Positions 35,646-46,111 of a stretch of DNA of 64,000 bases are shown in pieces. The DNA is from Pseudovirgaria hyperparasitica (Eukaryota): assembly GCA_010093815.1 (NCBI GenBank), contig ML996580.1; one strand, given 5' to 3'. The position numbers and the translations under genes are program-made. The notes under the pieces were generated by a model. It was not told the origin of the DNA and ran no database searches. It saw nothing but the letters and a program-made list of their open reading frames with translations. Every line of letters begins with the position of its first letter. The first letter of the stretch is position 1.

Positions 35646-36035
35646 GTTAGCGAAGATGCAGCGCTCCAATGGGCGCAGGAGAAGGTTGAGAGGTCGCCAA
35701 TGTGGATGCGGGCAGAAGGACGTAGGTGAGGTTGGTAGTAGGACGGACTGGCGCAGCAGCGGGTGTTGCGATTTTTGGCGGAGCGCGCTTACGAGACGAG
35801 CTCAATCAATCAGAGCGCTCGGCAACGCTTGCATCTAATAACAGATCCCTGCACTGCAGTCTACCCAGGTAACGCTACGCCATTCGACCCTCTCCGGCGA
35901 CCTTTTGCGTTTACACTGTATTCCGTTTCATTTGCCCGCGATCACAAGAACAACGCATATTAGCAGCCAATCTCGTTCCTTCGTCTTTGTCCGAACCCTT
36001 CTCATTTCGAAACATAAACCAAGACCTCTGTCATC

Positions 36036-37032
36036 ATGTCTGGCAGCGGGGTAAGCTCGTTGATAGCTTTGAAGCTTCTTTGATATATTGATGATATACT
36101 AATGGCTCGAAGCAGGCGAGAGAATCGGTCTTCCCGACCCGACAATCGCTGGGCCTGATGAAGAGCAAGCTTAAGGGCGCTCAGACCGGTCATGACCTGC
36201 TCAAGAGAAAGAGTGAAGCTCTGACAAAGTACGGTCTCCCTATCCTCAACGTGAAGCTTGGAAACAATGTCAACAATAGCATGATAGTATGATCTCGTGT
36301 TAACGCATGATTGCAGGCGTTTTCGTGAAATCACCCGCCGTATCGACGAAGCGAAGCGTAAGATGGGCCGCGTCATGCAAATCGCAGCATTTTCCCTCGC
36401 CGAAGTTACGTACGCCGTGGGAAACTCTTCCCTAGGCTATCAGATTCAAGAGTCTGCAAAACAAGCACGTTTCCGAGTACGGACAAAGCAAGAGAATGTC
36501 TCTGGTGTATTCCTGCCGCAGTTCGAAGTGTTCACAGAGGAGGGTAACAACGACTTCGGTCTGACCGGACTCGGCAAGGGTGGTCAACAGGTACAGCGAT
36601 GTAGGGAGACGTATGCAAGGGCTGTCGAGACATTAGTAGAGCTCGCTAGTTTGCAAACAGCGTTTGTTATTCTTGACGAGGTCATTAAGGTTGTCAACCG
36701 AAGAGTCAACGCTATGTATGCTGATACAGTCTCCGCGACACTGGACATTGCTGATTGACTCTAGTGAGCACGTCATTATTCCTCGCACAGAGAACACGAT
36801 TAAGTACATTAACTCTGAGCTGGACGAGCTGGATAGAGAAGAGTTCTACAGGCTGAAAAAGGTATCTGGCAATAAAAAGCGTAATGCTGCAGCAGAAGAG
36901 CTTGAGCGAGCGGGCAAGAAGAAAGCGGACGATGAAGAAGAGGAAGAGGAGGATGAAAAAGAAGAGGAGGAAGATGTCCCAGAAACGAAAGACATGCTAG
37001 GCGACGAAGACGATCAGGATGTGATTTTCTGA
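36036..37032 (+). CDS. VMA8: V-ATPase V1 subunit D
   Basis: MSGSG/ARESVFPTRQSLGLMKSKLKGAQTGHDLLKRKSEALTK/RFREI..LTGLGKGGQQV..VVNRRVNA/EHVIIPRTENTIKYINSELDELDREEFYRLKK. Confidence 0.95.
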
Positions 37033-37185
37033 TCTGAGGTATGAAAAGCGATATACCTTAACTATTGAGTATTGGGCACGCAGCTTCCCACATACATGTA
37101 TAATACAACGATGCAATGATACCTTTACCAGCGCCGTGCATGATTTAAACCCTTCCAACGCCGTGACTGACCTTGATCGCCCTCT

Positions 37186-37995
37186 CTATTGTCTCTGGAA
37201 AGTGACCTTCATAGGTTTGCCTTCATCACCAAGCTCCATGCCAGCAACTGACTCCTTCGCACTAATGGCACCGTCCTCTGCTTCATACTCCACGAAGGCA
37301 ATACCGGGCCGATAGGGTACAGGCCGTACCTCCTTGAATCCGGCGAATCTGGCGAATATCGCTTCGAGATTCTCGACATCATAGTCGTGCGGCAGGTTTT
37401 GCACGAACAGGATCTTGTTCGGGGGCAGGTATTCATCTGGGATGACGGCAGCTGAAGCTGTCGACTTAAGTTTAGACGTCTTGATCGGTCGCTGGGTAGG
37501 TTCGGAGTCTGGTGCGCCGCGCTTGAGTTTCTGTTGAGTAGTTGCCGCTTCAAGAGCCTGCTTGCGCTCTGCGAAGAAATATTAGCAAAAGGATCTTCTG
37601 ACCGCGATATATAAGACGTACCTTTTTCAGCTAGTCTCCTTCGTCGATGTAACTCCAGCTCTTCAGCATTTCCGTCGCGCTTGACCGTCGCGTCGCTCCG
37701 CGTCCGCGCAAAGTCTACGCTCATCGGTTTGTCCCATAGCTCGAAGCCCTGCAAGTCTTCTACCGCACGCGCGGCGTGCTCAGGCGACTGAAAGACGACG
37801 AAGGCTTGACCTTTAGCTTTCACGTTGGGTTTTGCAATTATCTCTACAACCGGACCGAAGAGTGAGCACAGGTCTTCGAGAGTCGATGTGAGCATGGACA
37901 GGCGCACGCGCTCGTCGAGATTGCGTACGTATATCCTTAGGCATGTTAGTGAGGCTCAGGTAAGGTTCAATGGGTACAGACGTCGTGTTAGCCAT
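37186..37995 (-). CDS. U1A/U2B''-type snRNP protein with two RRMs
   Basis: MANTT/IYVRNLDERV..KAKGQAFVVF..KPMSVDFARTRSD; second RRM PPNKILFVQNLP..FAGFKEVRPVP..IAFVEYE. Confidence 0.88.
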
Positions 37996-38328
37996 GGTTG
38001 ACAGTCTGAGGTGTAGAAGGGCGCGAAGATGTAGGCTGGTGGGTTTGTCGTTTGCGGAGCCGGAGCTGTAGTTGCAGTCGAGCTTGAAGAGCGTCCTTAA
38101 CGAGCTACCTCGTCACCAAGCAACAACGCCCATTTGTAGAATGGATTCCTCTCTGTCCTCAACACGATCTGATTGCACGAAAGCTTATTTCCTGGAGATC
38201 AGCGAATGCCCATGACTTAGTAGAACGAGTCTGATCGTTTGTTACGCGCACATCACCCATCACTTCACAATCTAAACATCAAACATAATTCAGCATCGTT
38301 ATCGGAATATGATTCCTGAAATGAAGCT

Positions 38329-41290
38329 TTATCTCAGTAGGCCTTGCAACCGCTTATCCTCTGCAAGCAGTCGATTGATCTCATCAGCTATCGCGATACT
38401 ATCGCCTTCGATAGCCTCCCTTAGCATTATCGCTGTGTTCCTTAGTTCCGCTCGAACATCCGCAAATTCTCCTCCGTGGTCTTCCAGTCGAATCCAACAT
38501 ACACACAGTCCTTTTAAGATACCCCCTCGATGAAAAGCCAAACGAGGCTTGCTGTTCCTCATGATCACTTGTAACGCTAGAGAAGCTCTGACAAGCAACG
38601 GCGGGTACGCATAACCAAATGGGTCTGATAGAATGGTACCAAGCATGGGAATGAGATCCTTGAGATGCTTGACTGAGTAAATCCCCTGTGCATCAAGTAA
38701 CGGACAGAGCTCTGTCAGAAGAAGCTCAGCAATTTGCACATTTTCACCCGCGTGATAGTATGGTGCCAGAATTCCTTTTCGAATGATGGCATCAATAAAT
38801 TTTTCTCGTTTAACGCAAACGACTGACCTGGGAGACTGTACATTCGAACTGGGATATTGAATATTTGCAAGGGTAATCAGGGTTGGGAAAGTTGCTTTCA
38901 GCAATTCAATGCTTTCGTTTTCAGGGGTGAGTGATGGGAGGTATGTGAACAGAGGGAAAAGCTCTTTCTCAAATATATCACCGAGGCCAGTTCGAGATAG
39001 TAGTTCTGGGGTTGTACGTTGTAACAATATCTTCAGAAGAGTGACGCCTTTTGCCTTCCAGCTAACATCAAGGTCATCGAGTAAAGTCATGACTGGGGGC
39101 AGGAGCAGAGGCCAATTATTCTCGACACGCTTTGCATCAAGGATTGTTATTGACCAGCGGAGCAAATCGATGACGTAGCTAGCGTCCTTCTTCCATGCTT
39201 TAGCTTTGTCTGTATGTATGATGCCGCTCATCGAGATTTTGGCGCTTGGTAGATCACGTGTGTTTTTATGCCCGGTCGCCGTTACGGGTGCGTGTTGTCT
39301 CTGTTCCTTTGATTGAGCAAAAATCGGGCGTAGGGTAGAGGAGAGAAAATGGTGGGCGAGGCGGAAGGGAAGCTCACTTTGTGACGTTGTAGTAAGACTT
39401 GCAGCAACGCGTACTTTGAGTTCCGGTTTTAATGCTTCAATGGCCAGGGAAGGATCTGTGAGATCTGGATGCAGAAGTTGCCATGCCATAACTACTTCCA
39501 GCGCCTCTTTCATCCAAGGTCCGGGTTTTGCAGAAAGCGCTTTGGCAATTGCGTTTCCATCTATGAGAGGTTTGAATGTGTATGCTTCAATGATGCCGAG
39601 ATCTGAGATATGTGCGAGAAATTCTGCGTAGGAGGATACAATCACTGATACACGTGAGTGAGCAGGACAAAAATACACTACTGTTGAAGCACTTACAGTC
39701 TTCTGAATCTGGTGCATTGACTATCTCATGCATCAGTGCATAGAGGGTCTGTTGTCTCCAGCTTGAACCCCATTGACGTATAGCCATCCCAAGAGTATCA
39801 CGTCCAGTAGCATCACCGTCTTCTGCATTCTTCTTCGACAATTTCTTCTGTCTGCAAAACTGGTCCTTGACATTCTTAATGTCTCCAAAATTGCGCGCAG
39901 CTGCAGCGACAATATCGCTATATCGATTTGGTGCTTTGACGCCTTCTCGCGCCATTACTGCTGCAAGTTGTTGGGGTTTACCCTTGCCGGTAGTGATAAC
40001 TGGGGCGTCTGCGTAAGGTACCAGGGAACTGAGAACCCAAGCCAAGTACCTGTCCTCAACGTTCCGAATGAGTATTGGTAGCACTGTTGCCAAGGAGGCA
40101 GAATCGGTCCTGTCTGCTCGGAGTAGCTTCGATACGAAGCGGTACGCAAGGGGGAGACGCGCAACCTCAGGCAAAAAGTCATGCTTCTGTGTAGGGTCAT
40201 CAAAGACTGTATTGTAAAGACCAAGTTTATCGATCAAGGAGAGAGCTTCGCAGGGGTCTGGCCCCTTCAGCATTTTCTCGAACTCTATACCAACACGCTC
40301 ACGGGTGATCTTGACTTTGAAGTCTGTCTTGATCTCGTCATTACGCATGGCCGCCTGTGCGTCCTCGTCGATGGTGTACCCCAGCCTACTGGCAAATCTA
40401 ATCAATCTCAGGACACGGAGCGGATCATCCTTGAACGTCTGGTATGGATCTAGTGGAGTCCTGATGATTTTGAGTTGCATATCTTTGAGCCCTCGTCCGG
40501 TAAAGTCCTCGATGGTGGATGTCTCGAGGTTGTAGAACATCGCATTTACTGTAGCGTCGCGACGGAGAGCATCTTCTTCAGGCGTACCAAATTCTATTTG
40601 AGGGTTCCGACTGTCGTTGGTGTACGTCTCCTTCCGAAGGTTAACCAGGTCAATCTCCAGGCCAAAAACTTTTGTAGTTATGGTTTCAAGATGCTTCGAT
40701 CTCTCAGGATTAGCTTCTATCTTGTGAAGTCCTACTTTGCCGACGTTCTCGTATTTGCTAGCATTACCAGGAATCTGTAGATACTCCTGCATTTTCAGAC
40801 CAAACTGCTCGCCTGTCATCTTGTTGATGGCGATATCGATATCTTTGCTACCTACACCGAGCAGTTTGTCGCGAACCCAGCCTCCTGTCCAACGAAGCTC
40901 AAGCTTTGCTTTCGCAAGCTCTTCAGGGAGCTTCACCGTCGAAGACGCAGCATCTCCTGGAGATGATTGATCAATATATGCTGCAGTATCTAAGAGGAGC
41001 TGTCGCAATGCAGACTCGAGCTCGGTCAATTCAATAGTCGGTGGCTTAGTTGCACCGTTCGACGACATCTTCGGCACGTCAGCCGTAACTGTCTCAGGTA
41101 GTTCGATTCTCCTTCGTTTTAATCCACGTTCGGTTTCTGAGACTGGCGAAGTCTTCGACTTTTCAGGCATCCGATATACGTTCGCTGCAACATGAAACCA
41201 CAAACGTCGTAGCTGAATGGCAGTTCGCGATCTAGGGCGAAAAGTGCGCGAAGAAAGGAGAAATGGGCGAGCGACCTGGTGTAGAGTCAT
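38329..41290 (-). CDS. CCA1: CCA tRNA nucleotidyltransferase fused in frame to a C-terminal Tti2-like domain (~969 aa)
   Basis: GGWVRDKLLG..DIDIA, DLVNLRKETY, EEDALRRDATVN, DDPLRVLRLIRFASR, ERVGIEFEKML; one intron 39696-39645; CCA tail KPGPWMKEALEVVMAWQL, then with no stop WPLLLPPVMTLLDD..WKAKG..LLSRTGLGDIF..YLPSLTPENES..KHLKDLIPML. Confidence 0.88.
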
Positions 41291-41764
41291 GCATAGACCT
41301 GACTCTTAGTACGTATGGTACGTAGAGGGCTAGTCTGGTCTCTTGTAACGGCTGATAGTCACTCTATTCGCCTATGAGTCGAGCGATACGGTTTCAGTAT
41401 AAGAGGAAGACTCTAGGTTGATAAGAGTTAAGAAAAGAAGACACGATAGATAGATATATGATACATGATAGATCAAAAGTAGGCGAGTAGGTAGAAGCTG
41501 GCGCCACAATGTGGCGTCGGTTTTAGCAAAACGGAAAAGGAACAGTGCCAGCCCGGTCTACGCCATACCGCGTGGCATCTCCGTTAGCATTATACGACAA
41601 TGCAGTGTGAACGAAACCCGCGACCTTATTAGTATCTGTACCCTTTCCCCATGCAAGAGCAATCCCACGATTGACTTACAGAGCAATATCACCTTGCGAC
41701 CCATGCTACGTACATCTGCGCTGCTCTATCGACCTTTTCCCAGCCGAGCGAGGCGGAGGCTTCC

Positions 41765-44243
41765 ATGACGCCTTCACAAGATGCCACACCAATACCACTC
41801 CCGATCACCGCTCCTGCGCTGTCCGGTATAGATGAGTCCATAAAACTCCCAAGGAGACGGGCTCAATCGCCTGGTGCGTCTCTAGCGTCTCTTCCAGATC
41901 GTCGCTCCAGCCCTTCTCTGTCCTCCTTGTTCGCATCCACCTCGTCTCTCGCCGGTAGTAGGCCAGGTTCAGGCACATCAACTCCTACTGCCTCGACGAT
42001 CCCAAGTTCAGTCTTCTCCCCAGTGTCACGATCAAACGGGGCTCCCTTCCCCGGTCCAGGATTCGAAGGAACAGAAGAGCTACGGAACCTAATATCCAGA
42101 TCGTTTGCGCCGCATGTGGGAGTGCTGGCGTCTGAAGACACAGAAGAGCTGGTGCAGCAGAAAGGATTTCAGGGTGGATTACTAGATCTTATAAGACCAT
42201 TTGGCGAGCATATAACAGGAAAGCTGGCCATACGAGACAGCAATGGCTCCAGTAAAGTCGTCGACGATTTCGGGATACGTTTCATGGGTCTCAAAGATGG
42301 CCTCGGCTACCCGTCGTTCCCTAGAAAGAGCGCGGAGGGGGTGTATGATTCAACAAATCGGGAGCTGAACTCAGGAAAACCGTCAGACCGATGGTCGCGG
42401 ACAGGTGGTGACATATCGCATATTGAAGAAGCTGTAGGCCGACATATTGCATATGCCGAAATGCAAAATACAGGGTCGATCTCAGACTATTTCAATAGCA
42501 GGAACATTTCATCTGCCGGTTGGGAGGCGTCGCCGTTCTACGCTCTTTATCTAAGGCGGTTGTTGTCGGGTCTTCCATTGGTACCCCACGAAACGTTCTC
42601 GCATCCTGTGGCCTGTGTTATAGCCATAAGTTCTCATAGCACATCACCCATAGAGGAACTCCGACGCCTATACACCAGCACGAACATTAGTGATTCTAGG
42701 CTTCCACAATGGGTGAACAACGAATTCTTACGATACTACGTTTTATTGCATGATGAAGACAATGACGATATCAAGCAGTCAATGGGCCTCTATGAGCAAA
42801 TGAAACGTAACTTTGGGCTTCATTGCCATTTATTACGGATACGTAGCGCACAGGCTGTTCCTTCAGATGATGAAAGTGTGAGAATACCGTTATGTGAGTG
42901 GATGTCTGCCTCTGAGGAATTGGCAGAAATCGAAAAGCGAGGTAAGACCATTATTATCTATGGTCGTGTTCAATAAAACTGATGGCTCCTTAGAAGCTGC
43001 AGACGATGACGTTGATCCAACGCCATGCATTTTCGAGTCTGATGCCACAGCCATCAGGAGTTTCGTCCGTGAGCTTGTAGCGTCTTCCATCGTACCATTG
43101 ATGGAGCGGATGTGCGCCCAATGGAATGAACAAATTCTTTCGCGCCGCAAAGGTTTAAGCGGCCGATTCATGTCCCTCTCAAAACGGTGGACTCCTTTTG
43201 GAGCTTCGTCGCGCAACAGCTCCGGTCCTATGTCTGGCGGGTCCAGCAATTACGACTCCTTGCAGGGCTTTTACAAACCCGACACACCCGAAGCGTTGAT
43301 GCGCAAGCTCGCTGACTATGCGTTCATGCTACGCGACTACAAACTGGCCCAATCTACCTACGACGTACTGCGTTCTGATTTCAATAGTGATAAAGCGTGG
43401 ACATACTATGCAGGTGCTAGCGAAATGGTTGCCATTGCAGCGCTGATGACCCCGAATAATATGTCCTCAAAAGCCCGCATTGAGAACATTGACCAATTCC
43501 TGGAGGCTTCGTCATACTCCTACGTCACCCGCTCCGCAGCTCCGTATTACGCACTGCGAACACTCGCCCTAGGCCTGGAACTTCTTCGGCTACGCGGGAG
43601 TTCAGCCGCGGACGATGCCGCACGCTGGGCGTCTCGAATACTAGAATCGAGGCTGGTGGGTCCCATTGGACATGCGCTCTTCACGGAGCGCGTCTCAGCA
43701 TCATATGGTTGTCGTCGCGGTGTTGGGAACCTTAACTCTGGAAGCCGCACAAGAAAGTCGGCATTGTGGGCTTTACTTGCTACCTCAGAGTGGATCGCAC
43801 TCGAGAAAACGGACTTGGCCGAGAAAGCACTGCACCGTGCGTGTGCCCTGTACGGTGTCTTGCCCGGTGCATTTGAGGACACGCCTGTTGATATAAAGGA
43901 GGCTGAAGATGGCGTAGACAAGCTTGGCCTGCCGATGAGAGCATATCCTCTCGCATTCGGGGAGATGAAGGCCCATATTGATAGCCTAAGAGAGGCCTTA
44001 AGCGAGCAGAGGAGGATGGCTGACGGATATGATGACATGGCCGAAACGCTCATGCCAGCTGATGACGAAGAATTGGAGGTTGAAGATGTAATTAGCGAGA
44101 GTCTGACCGTGAACGCGCGGCCGAACCGCAAGAGCTTGATTGGCGCTCAAATGCCCTTTGGTGTAGATGTGGCACCATTGAGTCCCGTGCGGACAAGAGA
44201 CGAAGGCGAAGAAGGGTTTACGGAGAGTGATAAGATCTTGTGA
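41765..44243 (+). CDS. TRS85: TRAPP III subunit Trs85 (TRAPPC8)
   Basis: HETFSHPVACVIAISS, FLRYYVLLHDE, MKRNFGLHCHLLRIRS; intron 42942-42993; PEALMRKLADYAFMLRDYKLA..DFNSDKAW. Confidence 0.92.
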
Positions 44244-44329
44244 GCGGGCTAGGTGTGGTTCAGCTTCAGATGTGTGTAAGTATACCCTTATTTCAGTACT
44301 CATTGACACTGGCATCTACATCAAATAGA

Positions 44330-46111
44330 TTACAACCATGCTAGCGCTACTGCATCCCACATAAATCCTCTCCATCTCGTGCTTCTTTCCACTCGAAACT
44401 CCAACCTGTTCCATCCTGCCTTCAGACTTCCCGAAGGTAGCTCGAACTCAAATTGCCGCCATTGTCCAGCCGTAGTCGCACTCCTATACAAGCCCGGATC
44501 ATTCTGCAATCCCTTGTTATAGTCCGTCGTACTACCGCCACCCGACGTCAAATTGCCCACCTTTGCGTCATTCACGAATATTGTCGAACTCGTACCTGTC
44601 GAATATCCTGCCAAGCTCACGGTCAAAAGTGCCGTCGAGTTCGCTCTCCGCACGGATTCGCGCCAAGACATTTCAAAGTTGACGGCCCAAGACCCATTGG
44701 CTGTTTGTGCGAAGCACCAGTCTTCGGTCCTACTCCTTCCAACTGTGTAGTTGAGATTGTCCGGGCAGAGGTCTGATGAGCCGTGCGTGTAAGGGGCGCC
44801 GCCGTGCGCGAAGCCGATCGTCTTACGATCAAACGATCCGACACGGAAAATCTCGCTTCTTTCTTTGTAGCGTGGTTTCCAGACTATACGACCAAGGTCC
44901 GTGTAGCGAGATGAGACAACGGAGACATCGTTCTGTAGGTAAAACCCGGGCACGTTAAAGTGCCGGCCCCCGGTGGACCAGGCTCGGAGGCCATACGTGC
45001 CGGCTCGGACATCGCGGAAAGAGAAGCGCCCACGCTCGTCTGCGTAGGTGGTGTAGTAGTTTTTCGAGCCCATCTCTAAACTCGATTTGTTCGAGTTGTT
45101 GTCACCAAGAAAGATGGCTGCATTACTTGCAGGAGAACCGTCGTCGAGCTTCAGAACGCCAGACACTGCGCCTCGGGACTGGTACACTGCGTCGTCGAAC
45201 CATTTATATGGCCACGCCGCGTATTCTCTTGCCGCGCGCGCGGCTGCATCTCTTTTGTTGCCGTCGTTGAGATACCACAACCACGGACCCCACGTCTTTC
45301 CCACAGCGAATGTGTCACTAGGAGAGGACTGAAAATGTGTCCCGTGCAGCATATTCAGTTGAACCGCATCGCCTGTTGAGGACTCACGGTGTACCATGAG
45401 CTCCTGCTTCAGGTGGTCACCATTGTATTCGTCTTTACCGGGATAGATGTACCAGCTCCCGAAGTCAGGGCCATACACGCCGTAGAACTTCTCTTCGCGG
45501 ATGAAGCTGCTCCAGTCGTATTTGGTGATATACGACCCATCAGCGCGCTGCCACGTCTCATCTTGGATCTTGGTCGAGATGCCATAATCTGATAGCGGCG
45601 GGAGTGCTTCATCTTTGATACTCGTGTGTCCGTTCGGGAAGGAAGTGTTGTCGAGGCGCCAGAGACTGCGGAATTCACCGAGAGTGGGCAGCGCACGGTT
45701 TACGAAGTATTGGTATGCGCCGACGAGATCTCTTCTTATTATCCAATGAAAGTCGCCTTCTATAGCAGTGAATGAGACATCAATGAAGTCATGTCCGCGG
45801 CGAACAATTGTAGGAGATGTCCAATTGAGATCGCTTGCGGCGCCATCTGGAAATACTGTCAATATATCTATAACTGGGTGGTTACTGGTGGGAGACAGAC
45901 TGTAGCTCACGTAGTGTCCAACAGCATTGCCGACTAGATCCTGGTTCTTATGGTACAACTTCGTCGCATATGCAAAACCTTGGGTGACGTTCCAGTGGTC
46001 ATTCCCAATCACCGAATGCGTCGCGTTCAAGATCTGAAGGAACGGACCTCTTGCATGTGCCAGCTCAGCAGCAGTAGCAAGAAGAGCCCAGACAGTAGAC
46101 TGCAGCCACAT
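44330..46111 (-). CDS. secreted rhamnogalacturonan lyase, polysaccharide lyase family 4
   Basis: Signal peptide; LGEFRSLWRL, YITKYDWS, GDHLKQELMVH, LNMLHGTHF, TWGPWLWYLN, FnIII-like VRAGTYGL and CBM-like C-terminus; in-frame 54-nt intron 45900-45847. Confidence 0.88.
   Translation of the reverse strand: MWLQSTVWALLATAAELAHARGPFLQILNATHSVIGNDHWNVTQGFAYATKLYHKNQDLVGNAVGHYVSYSLSPTSNHPVIDILTVFPDGAASDLNWTSPTIVRRGHDFIDVSFTAIEGDFHWIIRRDLVGAYQYFVNRALPTLGEFRSLWRLDNTSFPNGHTSIKDEALPPLSDYGISTKIQDETWQRADGSYITKYDWSSFIREEKFYGVYGPDFGSWYIYPGKDEYNGDHLKQELMVHRESSTGDAVQLNMLHGTHFQSSPSDTFAVGKTWGPWLWYLNDGNKRDAAARAAREYAAWPYKWFDDAVYQSRGAVSGVLKLDDGSPASNAAIFLGDNNSNKSSLEMGSKNYYTTYADERGRFSFRDVRAGTYGLRAWSTGGRHFNVPGFYLQNDVSVVSSRYTDLGRIVWKPRYKERSEIFRVGSFDRKTIGFAHGGAPYTHGSSDLCPDNLNYTVGRSRTEDWCFAQTANGSWAVNFEMSWRESVRRANSTALLTVSLAGYSTGTSSTIFVNDAKVGNLTSGGGSTTDYNKGLQNDPGLYRSATTAGQWRQFEFELPSGSLKAGWNRLEFRVERSTRWRGFMWDAVALAWL

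Follow-up and report, generated by a model that had tools for sequence, protein, structure and literature searches.

We analyzed a minus-strand locus of the Dothideomycete Pseudovirgaria hyperparasitica, located in a 64,000-nucleotide stretch of contig ML996580.1 (NCBI GenBank assembly GCA_010093815.1; this whole stretch is called the window below). At the locus, the predicted coding sequence of a CCA-adding tRNA nucleotidyltransferase (CCA1) is followed by that of a domain of the co-chaperone subunit Tti2. Two stop-free frames, 39587..41305 and 38329..39720, overlap around 39645-39696, and removal of a 52-nucleotide (nt) intron (intron 1, 39696..39645, GTAAGTGC...TATCAG, also GTAAGT...TATCAG) joins them in frame. 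A preliminary description, made from the letters of the window, had proposed one fused frame after this single intron. The in-frame join was borne out, and cDNA-like contigs of two public sequencing runs (X1 and X2) skip exactly the same 52 nt. With only intron 1 removed, the stop-free frame has 969, 929 or 895 codons, counted from the in-frame ATGs at 41290, 41170 and 41068, respectively. What had been overlooked is a second spliced segment, 39377..39301 (intron 2), which lies on the joint between the two domains. The features of the locus are as follows.

38087..41471, minus strand: transcribed unit, one cDNA-like contig (X1, 3256 nt) with the CCA1 and Tti2 coding regions, two segments skipped
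41171..41290, minus strand: N-terminal extension from the first in-frame ATG (41290); 40 residues, 8 Arg, no Lys, Asp or Glu
39697..41068, minus strand: exon 1 coding sequence shared by all starts; head, neck and body of the predicted CCA-adding enzyme
40460..40894, minus strand: Pfam PolyA_pol head (PF01743), residues 93-237 of window:39697-41170:-; E 7.2e-25, 88.2 bits, cut-off 23
40202..40381, minus strand: Pfam PolyA_pol_RNAbd (PF12627), residues 264-323; E 1e-05, 25.6 bits, cut-off 22
39645..39696, minus strand: intron 1, 52 nt, skipped in contigs of both runs
39378..39644, minus strand: exon 2; predicted CCA1 C-terminal tail (GPWM...AWQL helices) and a short linker to the donor
39301..39377, minus strand: intron 2, 77 nt, putatively coding, GTGAGCTT...GAACAG, skipped in both runs
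39266..39268, minus strand: TAA closing the CCA1 frame once intron 2 is removed
39229..39231, minus strand: first ATG of the Tti2 frame past the joint; would open a second open reading frame (ORF2; 300 amino acids [aa], 33.7 kDa) without the first helix
38332..39300, minus strand: exon 3 coding sequence; rest of the predicted Tti2 HEAT/ARM-like solenoid, in frame with CCA1 only when intron 2 is kept
38611..39402, minus strand: Pfam Tti2 (PF10521), residues 81-344 of window:38332-39642:-; E 3.7e-73, 246.9 bits, cut-off 25.2, profile positions 25-278 of 279
38329..38331, minus strand: TAA closing the Tti2 frame

The RNA data consist of contigs from the two runs, which come from one sample and hold 90-94% of the window's sequence words. 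The kind of run is unrecorded; we read the contigs as cDNA assemblies because they skip eight short GT..AG or CT..AC segments over 10 kb, end close to gene boundaries and vary in depth between genes. In each run, one contig spans the whole locus and skips both introns (blocks 38087-39300 and 39697-41471 in X1 record 2; 38388-39300 and 39697-41341 in X2 record 6). The skipped intron 2 is the 77 nt at 39301-39377, GT..AG on the minus strand, with the joint at 39300|39378, exactly between the two domains. Since 77 is not divisible by 3, splicing of intron 2 shifts the frame, and CCA1 receives 11 more codons up to the TAA at 39268..39266. The spliced CCA1 product would be 631, 591 or 557 aa long (70.8, 65.9 or 62.1 kDa), an ordinary CCA1 size, and the Tti2 frame is left without a start codon until the ATG at 39231, 37 nt past the CCA1 stop. 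Up to 160 nt away in the window, no alternative acceptor was found that would keep the frame from the observed donor. CCA1 is all that the observed RNA encodes, and a fused protein is possible only when intron 2 is kept. The preliminary description had named a single fused polypeptide (~108 kDa) as the product; this did not hold as stated, as a 100-109 kDa protein would at most be a minor intron-retention isoform. It had also counted transcripts that break at the joint as evidence against a fusion, and what we found goes part of the way in that direction: the sole RNA form seen splices out the 77 nt and closes CCA1 at 39268..39266.

The CCA1 and Tti2 halves

Judged by its domains and motifs, the first half of the frame is a predicted class II CCA-adding tRNA nucleotidyltransferase. 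Both Pfam families that the preliminary description had expected, PolyA_pol and Tti2, matched well above their curated cut-offs, and the CCA1 motifs, read in the translation, are intact as it had said. The window model that begins at ATG 41068, lacks intron 1 and retains intron 2 has a 100% identical counterpart in NCBI and UniRef, an 895-aa P. hyperparasitica protein (P0001) named ‘poly A polymerase C-terminal region-like protein’. Both P0001 and the translated window contain GGWVRD...DIDIA, EDALRRDATVNA and DDPLRVLRLIRF, which we take to represent the GGxVRD (with its DxD carboxylates), RRD and EDxxR-type motifs; the related loci described below carry the same GGWVRD, DxD, RRD and DDPLRVLR motifs. 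The profile of alignment A1 matched Schizosaccharomyces pombe cca1 (9ns2_A) with an E of 1.1e-104, profile positions 6-527 aligning to chain residues 6-486. Like the class II enzymes of S. pombe (cca1/cca2, PDB 9ns2, 9ns4), the P. hyperparasitica enzyme has the same domains and motifs and an ordinary length once spliced, here with three in-frame ATGs. It differs from them in that the natural CCA1 stop is gone; termination needs the removal of a frameshifting intron, failing which the frame reads through into Tti2. Free-standing CCA1 of Trichoglossum and Teloschistes stops about 20-25 residues past the AWQL motif, and the two methionines of the CCA1 tail (GPWM and VVMAWQL) are conserved, in free-standing CCA1 too.

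The public model begins at the ATG at 41068. Translation from 41290 would add the 40-residue, arginine-rich extension, which resembles a mitochondrial presequence and could serve mitochondrial targeting. Saccharomyces cerevisiae Cca1 uses several in-frame starts for its mitochondrial and cytosolic forms, and the three-ATG layout recalls this multiple-start design. The cDNA-like contig that reaches 41471 also holds upstream ATGs at 41466 and 41294.

The second half is, on profile and alignment evidence, a true Tti2 domain with a predicted HEAT/ARM-type alpha-solenoid fold. Among the subunits of the Tel2-Tti1-Tti2 (TTT) co-chaperone, which serves PIKK kinases, Tti2 is the smallest, and its recognition in the C-terminal ~350 aa by the preliminary description was correct: PF10521 matched with 246.9 bits, and homology to human TTI2 and to Glutinoglossum Tti2 was found. 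The Pfam match begins directly behind the CCA1 tail. BLASTP aligned the Tti2 part with the free-standing Glutinoglossum protein (E 5e-82, 37% identity) through to both C-termini, starting within the segment encoded by intron 2 (query residue 11 at subject residue 93 of 444). A family profile matched human TTI2 (7f4u_C) with an E of 2.4e-13 over chain residues 216-452 of 508; phmmer with a single Tti2 sequence gave no match among PDB sequences, where the profile search succeeded. AlphaFold modelled the 437-aa segment (window:38332-39642:-), using 65 aligned sequences, as an all-helical solenoid (predicted local distance difference test [pLDDT] 90.9, predicted template-modelling score 0.88). A Foldseek search against PDB returned generic ARM/HEAT rows only and none at E <= 0.001. 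Structure comparison matched CAND1, karyopherins and the HEAT region of mTOR at Z 15-18, all generic repeat matches, and TTI2 chains were absent among the 50 structural rows listed in a second comparison. Many solenoid alignments start at model residues 20-46, so that in the model the helices of the CCA1 tail prolong the stack of repeats, a weak hint that the enzyme could stand in for the missing part of Tti2.

In its near-complete PF10521 match, its homology to the human protein (chains 7f4u_C, 7ole_J, 9wjy_B) and its predicted alpha-solenoid, the fused domain resembles free-standing Tti2. Unlike free-standing Tti2, it has no gene and no start codon of its own, and its first helix is encoded in a segment spliced from the observed RNA. 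It also lacks the 90-200 extra N-terminal residues of free-standing fungal Tti2, for which it has no counterpart; tblastn with the N-terminal regions of seven free-standing or merged Tti2 proteins found no remnant in the window (best E 0.099). The earlier proposal that the nucleotidyltransferase replaced the Tti2 N-terminus stood as regards position, the enzyme lying where free-standing Tti2 has these residues, and the idea of a replacement is supported to that extent. No free-standing Tti2 named from P. hyperparasitica or any other Dothideomycete was present among 37 near-length Tti2 matches, and the clusters of short Tti2 matches held fragments only.

A conserved, putatively coding intron at the joint

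When kept, intron 2 supplies residues 89-114 of the 437-aa segment, within which AlphaFold places helix 90-109 (block pLDDT 96 and 92), the first of the predicted solenoid. In the 65-sequence alignment, which includes free-standing Tti2 of Lecanoromycetes, Geoglossomycetes and Sordariomycetes, F108 of this segment is invariant and L95, L100 and P106 are each at least 90% conserved. We infer that intron 2 must be translated in at least part of the molecules, because its helix is conserved, also in free-standing Tti2, and because the BLASTP alignment starts within the segment.

A scan of metagenome contigs recovered 15 related loci, 13 of which reach the joint and represent ~4 lineages at 35-40% protein identity. 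One open frame passes through the joint in all 13, extending over 79-103 codons upstream, as far as the intron-1 position, and over 345-379 codons downstream. The CCA1 motifs stand upstream wherever a locus extends that far, and the Tti2 frame is full-length (345-379 codons) in 12 of 12 loci that reach its end. The donor N|GTGAGCT[TC], placed on codons for [GS]-E-L, is found in the window and in 13/13 loci, where serine is always AGT (5/5) and glycine always GGT (9/9). Third-codon positions around the joint are invariant at only 4 of 32 sites among six lineage representatives, and two of the four are those of the donor's xGT and GAG codons. The nearest acceptors lie 65-77 nt downstream, the intron lengths that they give are all 2 modulo 3, and a stop follows after 1-28 codons. 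In the Pleosporales-like loci (L001, L002, L010, L012 and L013) and in the Ascochyta lentis pair P0070/P0185, the codons past the likely acceptor are AAT AAG or ACT AAG; here the Tti2 coding sequence itself seems to carry the stop of the spliced CCA1, as a TAA within one codon after the frameshift. We considered pyrimidine richness as a general signal of intron 2 and rejected it, since intron 2 exceeded all equal-sized windows of the next 900 nt in only three of the six lineage representatives.

The fused frame is also present in public annotation. We found 80 longer relatives of the CCA1 tail plus Tti2 segment, 776-1070 aa in length, all with PF01743 and PF10521. Judged by genus names, they are mostly from Dothideomycetes, with others from Alyxoria (Arthoniomycetes), Xylona (Xylonomycetes), Sarea (Sareomycetes) and one Lachnellula model (Leotiomycetes). 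Their Tti2 parts are 36-46% identical across the whole class, with E values to 1e-107. The records name the nucleotidyltransferase half only, and none mentions Tti2 or the junction intron. A published description of the CCA1-Tti2 arrangement was not found in the full-text literature (supplements lay outside the scope of the search), and with 80 public models the suspicion in the preliminary description that the fusion might sit unremarked in related annotations proved right. In 75 of the 80 proteins, a regular expression found [GS]E(.)L with the helix behind it (44 GEL, 30 SEL and 1 GEPL). The five that it missed are P0019, which shows GEL by eye, P0017 and P0068, which skip the helix, P0078, which is the Lachnellula model, and P0071.

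P0017 and P0068 are isoforms t1/t2 of Dothideomycetes sp. NU459 and skip, in frame, the first Tti2 helix or a larger N-terminal part of Tti2, which suggests more alternative splicing at the joint in some species. P0014 (JGI, 944 aa; longest contig 3243 nt) has an unbroken fused frame on a contig that hardly exceeds the reading frame in length, with no insertion at the intron-1 position and with the intron-2 helix present; if the contig is cDNA, it would be an mRNA that retained intron 2. Intron 1 is open in frame in many relatives of the A1 alignment (P0012, P0018, P0021, P0025, P0035-P0038, P0055, P0056 and P0058), and gene callers blind to introns read through it, adding 17-25 residues.

CCA1-only proteins of the same kind of locus recur as well. 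A near-length search with the CCA1 part gave a best 120 proteins, and we examined the 117 newly found (P0118-P0234). Ninety-seven of them stop in or before intron 1 and look like frames called on unspliced DNA. The 20 that pass intron 1 comprise 11 that end soon past the joint with a non-Tti2 tail (P0118, P0119, P0120, P0123, P0124, P0147, P0154, P0185, P0196, P0210 and P0211), four with the Tti2 helix, two free-standing Trichoglossum CCA1 proteins and three unclear cases. Among the 11, A. lentis P0185 (552 aa) equals the fused A. lentis P0070 (905 aa) over 551 residues, and then has one differing residue and ends where P0070 goes on with SEL (at the Ser codon). The end of P0154 matches the prediction for a 65-nt splice of the L001/L012 type. 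Some of the CCA1-only clusters hold 18 and 45 member sequences.

Products of the locus

The balance of the evidence tips slightly towards one locus with two products, in which the spliced RNA gives CCA1 and the RNA that retains intron 2 gives CCA1-Tti2. A single transcription unit would serve two normally separate housekeeping genes, CCA1 and the C-terminal two thirds of Tti2, with the 77-nt intron on their joint as the switch. Splicing would shift the frame and end CCA1 11 codons on. With intron 2 kept, the 77 nt would be read as the first and most conserved Tti2 helix, and the ribosome would continue to the end of a 100-109 kDa CCA1-Tti2 protein. The efficiency of splicing would thus set a ratio of high CCA1 to low Tti2. 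Retention, with entry from the CCA1 frame, appears to be the only conserved route to a complete Tti2 domain, because there is no conserved Tti2 start and because the helix is kept even where Tti2 is a separate gene. Since the one RNA form seen starts upstream of the CCA1 starts, we take these as the default sites of initiation; conceivably, an internal methionine of the CCA1 tail could be used on a shorter transcript (394 aa, 44 kDa). The new point is the conserved, frameshifting and apparently protein-coding intron on the joint, the fused frame itself being already in public annotation.

Retained and translated introns, or one gene giving two proteins, are known from S. cerevisiae PTC7, from SKI7/HBS1 of pre-duplication yeasts and from the exitrons of plants and animals; a literature search on exitrons in fungi found nothing relevant. 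The P. hyperparasitica locus resembles these systems in having an intron without an in-frame stop in a continuous frame, whose spliced and unspliced forms would encode different meaningful proteins. It differs in the choice offered, which would be between an essential enzyme and that enzyme joined to an unrelated essential protein. Intron 2 is also not a multiple of three, so that splicing closes the frame rather than deleting a segment, and translation of the retained form is predicted. The public fused models (P0001 and 79 others) share the architecture, and some species also have a CCA1-only model of the same locus.

Several points weigh against a splice switch of this kind. RNA retaining intron 2 was not seen among the contigs, none of which covers 39301-39377 or 39645-39696 in either run, and once covered length is allowed for, the one spliced contig accounts for the depth in the two bins around intron 2 in both runs. 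Rare variants are lost from contigs, which cannot prove the retained form absent. The fused models are gene-predictor output, and predictors favour long open frames. The spliced RNA has about 1.2 kb 3' of the CCA1 stop, a length at which nonsense-mediated decay would be expected, and is nevertheless the assembled form. A product from the ATG at 41290 would probably go to mitochondria, and we know of no mitochondrial role for Tti2. The truncated fungal Tti2 may or may not work in the usual way. Pal et al. (2021; PMC8278493) report that human GST-TTI2 1-193 co-purified TTI1, the partner being TTI1's C-terminal half, and that TTI2 194-508 was barely soluble and did not co-purify TTI1. Since the fungal domain aligns with human residues 216-452, it would, by that account, correspond for the most part to the half that alone fails to bind TTI1 in humans.

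It is possible, though on balance unlikely, that two proteins are made and never the full fusion, with CCA1 translated from the spliced mRNA and Tti2 produced separately. The spliced form alone occurs in the RNA contigs, a contig across both reading frames is no proof of a single RNA molecule, and the two genes are separate neighbours in other fungal classes, so that independent expression would be ancestral. One source of Tti2 could be a shorter transcript that starts within CCA1 and is translated from a methionine of the CCA1 tail (GPWM or VVMAWQL), giving a protein of about 394 aa and 44 kDa. Both methionines are conserved; however, they are conserved also in free-standing CCA1 and are hence uninformative on initiation. 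This route still needs intron 2 to be kept, the resulting Tti2 would carry CCA1-derived residues, and no contig start or end within the gene was reported in either run. Alternatively, ribosomes could re-initiate at ATG 39231 of a spliced and effectively bicistronic mRNA, where ORF2 (300 aa, 34 kDa) opens only 37 nt past the CCA1 stop. ORF2 lacks the invariant first helix, however, and its methionine is not conserved. A methionine between the helix and the PWK motif is present in only 32 of the 75 fused proteins with the regular joint (and only 7 of 75 have one in the linker that precedes the helix), and 43 of the 75 lack one in the segment between helix and motif, as do loci L005-L007 and L009. 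We therefore rejected re-initiation at an ATG of the ORF2 type as a conserved solution, since the methionine is in 32/75 only and the invariant helix would be lost.

The constitutive fusion of the preliminary description, in which a protein of ~100-109 kDa is the main product and the spliced form is minor or non-productive, is improbable. The frame is uninterrupted in the window, in 13/13 related loci and in 80 annotated models, and the public P. hyperparasitica model is fused. In both RNA runs, nevertheless, the assembly yielded the form without the 77 nt and no other, relatives repeatedly show CCA1-only proteins derived from splicing (some in clusters of 18 and 45 sequences), and the donor is conserved at synonymous positions, which would be pointless were splicing noise. 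That the Tti2 part is a decaying remnant, now CCA1 3' untranslated region, with a functional TTI2 elsewhere in the genome, is highly improbable: it lacks the N-terminal half with which human TTI2 binds TTI1, but its frames are full-length in 12/12 loci reaching their end, it is 36-46% identical across the whole class (E to 1e-107), its AlphaFold model is confident, and a free-standing Dothideomycete Tti2 was absent among the 37 near-length matches.

Origin and significance of the CCA1-TTI2 unit

An exhaustive HMMER search gave 890 Tti2-family representatives at E <= 0.001. Many are 500-590 aa long with the match starting from about residue 170-250, as in free-standing Tti2 with its own N-terminal region. 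In Teloschistes chrysophthalmus, adjacent locus tags encode CCA1 (P0377, 525 aa, Q9189_000529) and full-length Tti2 (P0250, 532 aa, Q9189_000530), and another annotation merges the pair into a 1070-aa model. Merged models that keep the Tti2 N-terminal region also occur in Fusarium, Helicocarpus (Eurotiomycetes) and Lachnellula. These adjacent and merged pairs in several classes indicate that the CCA1-TTI2 tandem pair is old in leotiomyceta, and the long-conserved adjacency may reflect co-expression. The compact form of Dothideomycetes and allied classes would have arisen from the tandem pair by loss of the CCA1 stop, the spacer and the Tti2 N-terminal region.

CCA1 and full-length TTI2 are same-strand neighbours in the records P0377/P0250/P0376 (Teloschistes), P0343 (Fusarium), P0316 (Helicocarpus) and P0078 (Lachnellula), and merged models of 1000-1236 aa are found in Lecanoromycetes, Sordariomycetes, Eurotiomycetes and Leotiomycetes. 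Beyond Dothideomycetes, compact fusions with the same GEL joint occur in Xylonomycetes (P0020, Xylona), Sareomycetes (P0043, Sarea) and Arthoniomycetes (P0080 and P0356), and separate CCA1 and TTI2 genes are kept in Lecanoromycetes and Geoglossomycetes. This pattern across classes needs either an old single origin or an unexpected relationship between classes.

In a tree of 34 Tti2 parts, made without Tothia and Parastagonospora (for which the motif regular expression failed) and with a Plenodomus slice that began too early, the compact forms clustered. The best tree needed two changes, and none of 500 label shuffles was as low. A single clade of compact fusions was not rejected by the approximately unbiased test (p 0.763), and only 26% of 200 bootstrap trees need one change; these sequences neither establish nor exclude that the compact fusion arose once.

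CCA1 and TTI2 are essential single-copy genes in yeasts. Here they share a promoter, a transcript and a reading frame, apparently across the largest ascomycete class, home to numerous plant pathogens as well as to rock, lichen and marine fungi. Were the retained form translated, the efficiency of splicing would set the amount of an abundant enzyme relative to that of a scarce chaperone subunit, selection would act on the intron twice, as splice substrate and as protein helix, and a protein-binding domain would have been replaced through the fusion of neighbouring genes. We regard as rather improbable the further proposal that CCA1 is a structural part of TTT in Dothideomycetes and allied classes, with its helical body and tail replacing the lost TTI1-binding half of Tti2, and that the retention rate determines, and might regulate, how tRNA 3'-end maturation capacity is balanced against PIKK biogenesis. 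If this is true, a fraction of the cell's only CCA1 would be built into the machine that matures TOR, ATR/Mec1, ATM/Tel1 and Tra1, giving a direct, splice-controlled coupling of translation capacity to growth signalling. A functional or regulatory coupling of tRNA 3'-end maturation to PIKK assembly is speculation. Annotations of the locus are inconsistent, fused in some cases and CCA1-only in others, with Tti2 named in none, and for this reason TTI2 may be listed as absent from these fungi in orthology tables.

Scans for Rfam families and tRNAs across the window gave no matches. Around the locus (regions 35935-37981 and 41591-45000), the cDNA-like contigs also place introns of neighbouring genes on the plus strand at 36050-36111, 36229-36316, 36716-36764 and 42940-42991, and minus-strand introns at 37569-37621 and 37935-37980 in a gene for an RNA-recognition-motif (RRM) protein. 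Two convergent genes are bridged by one contig (35935-37568).

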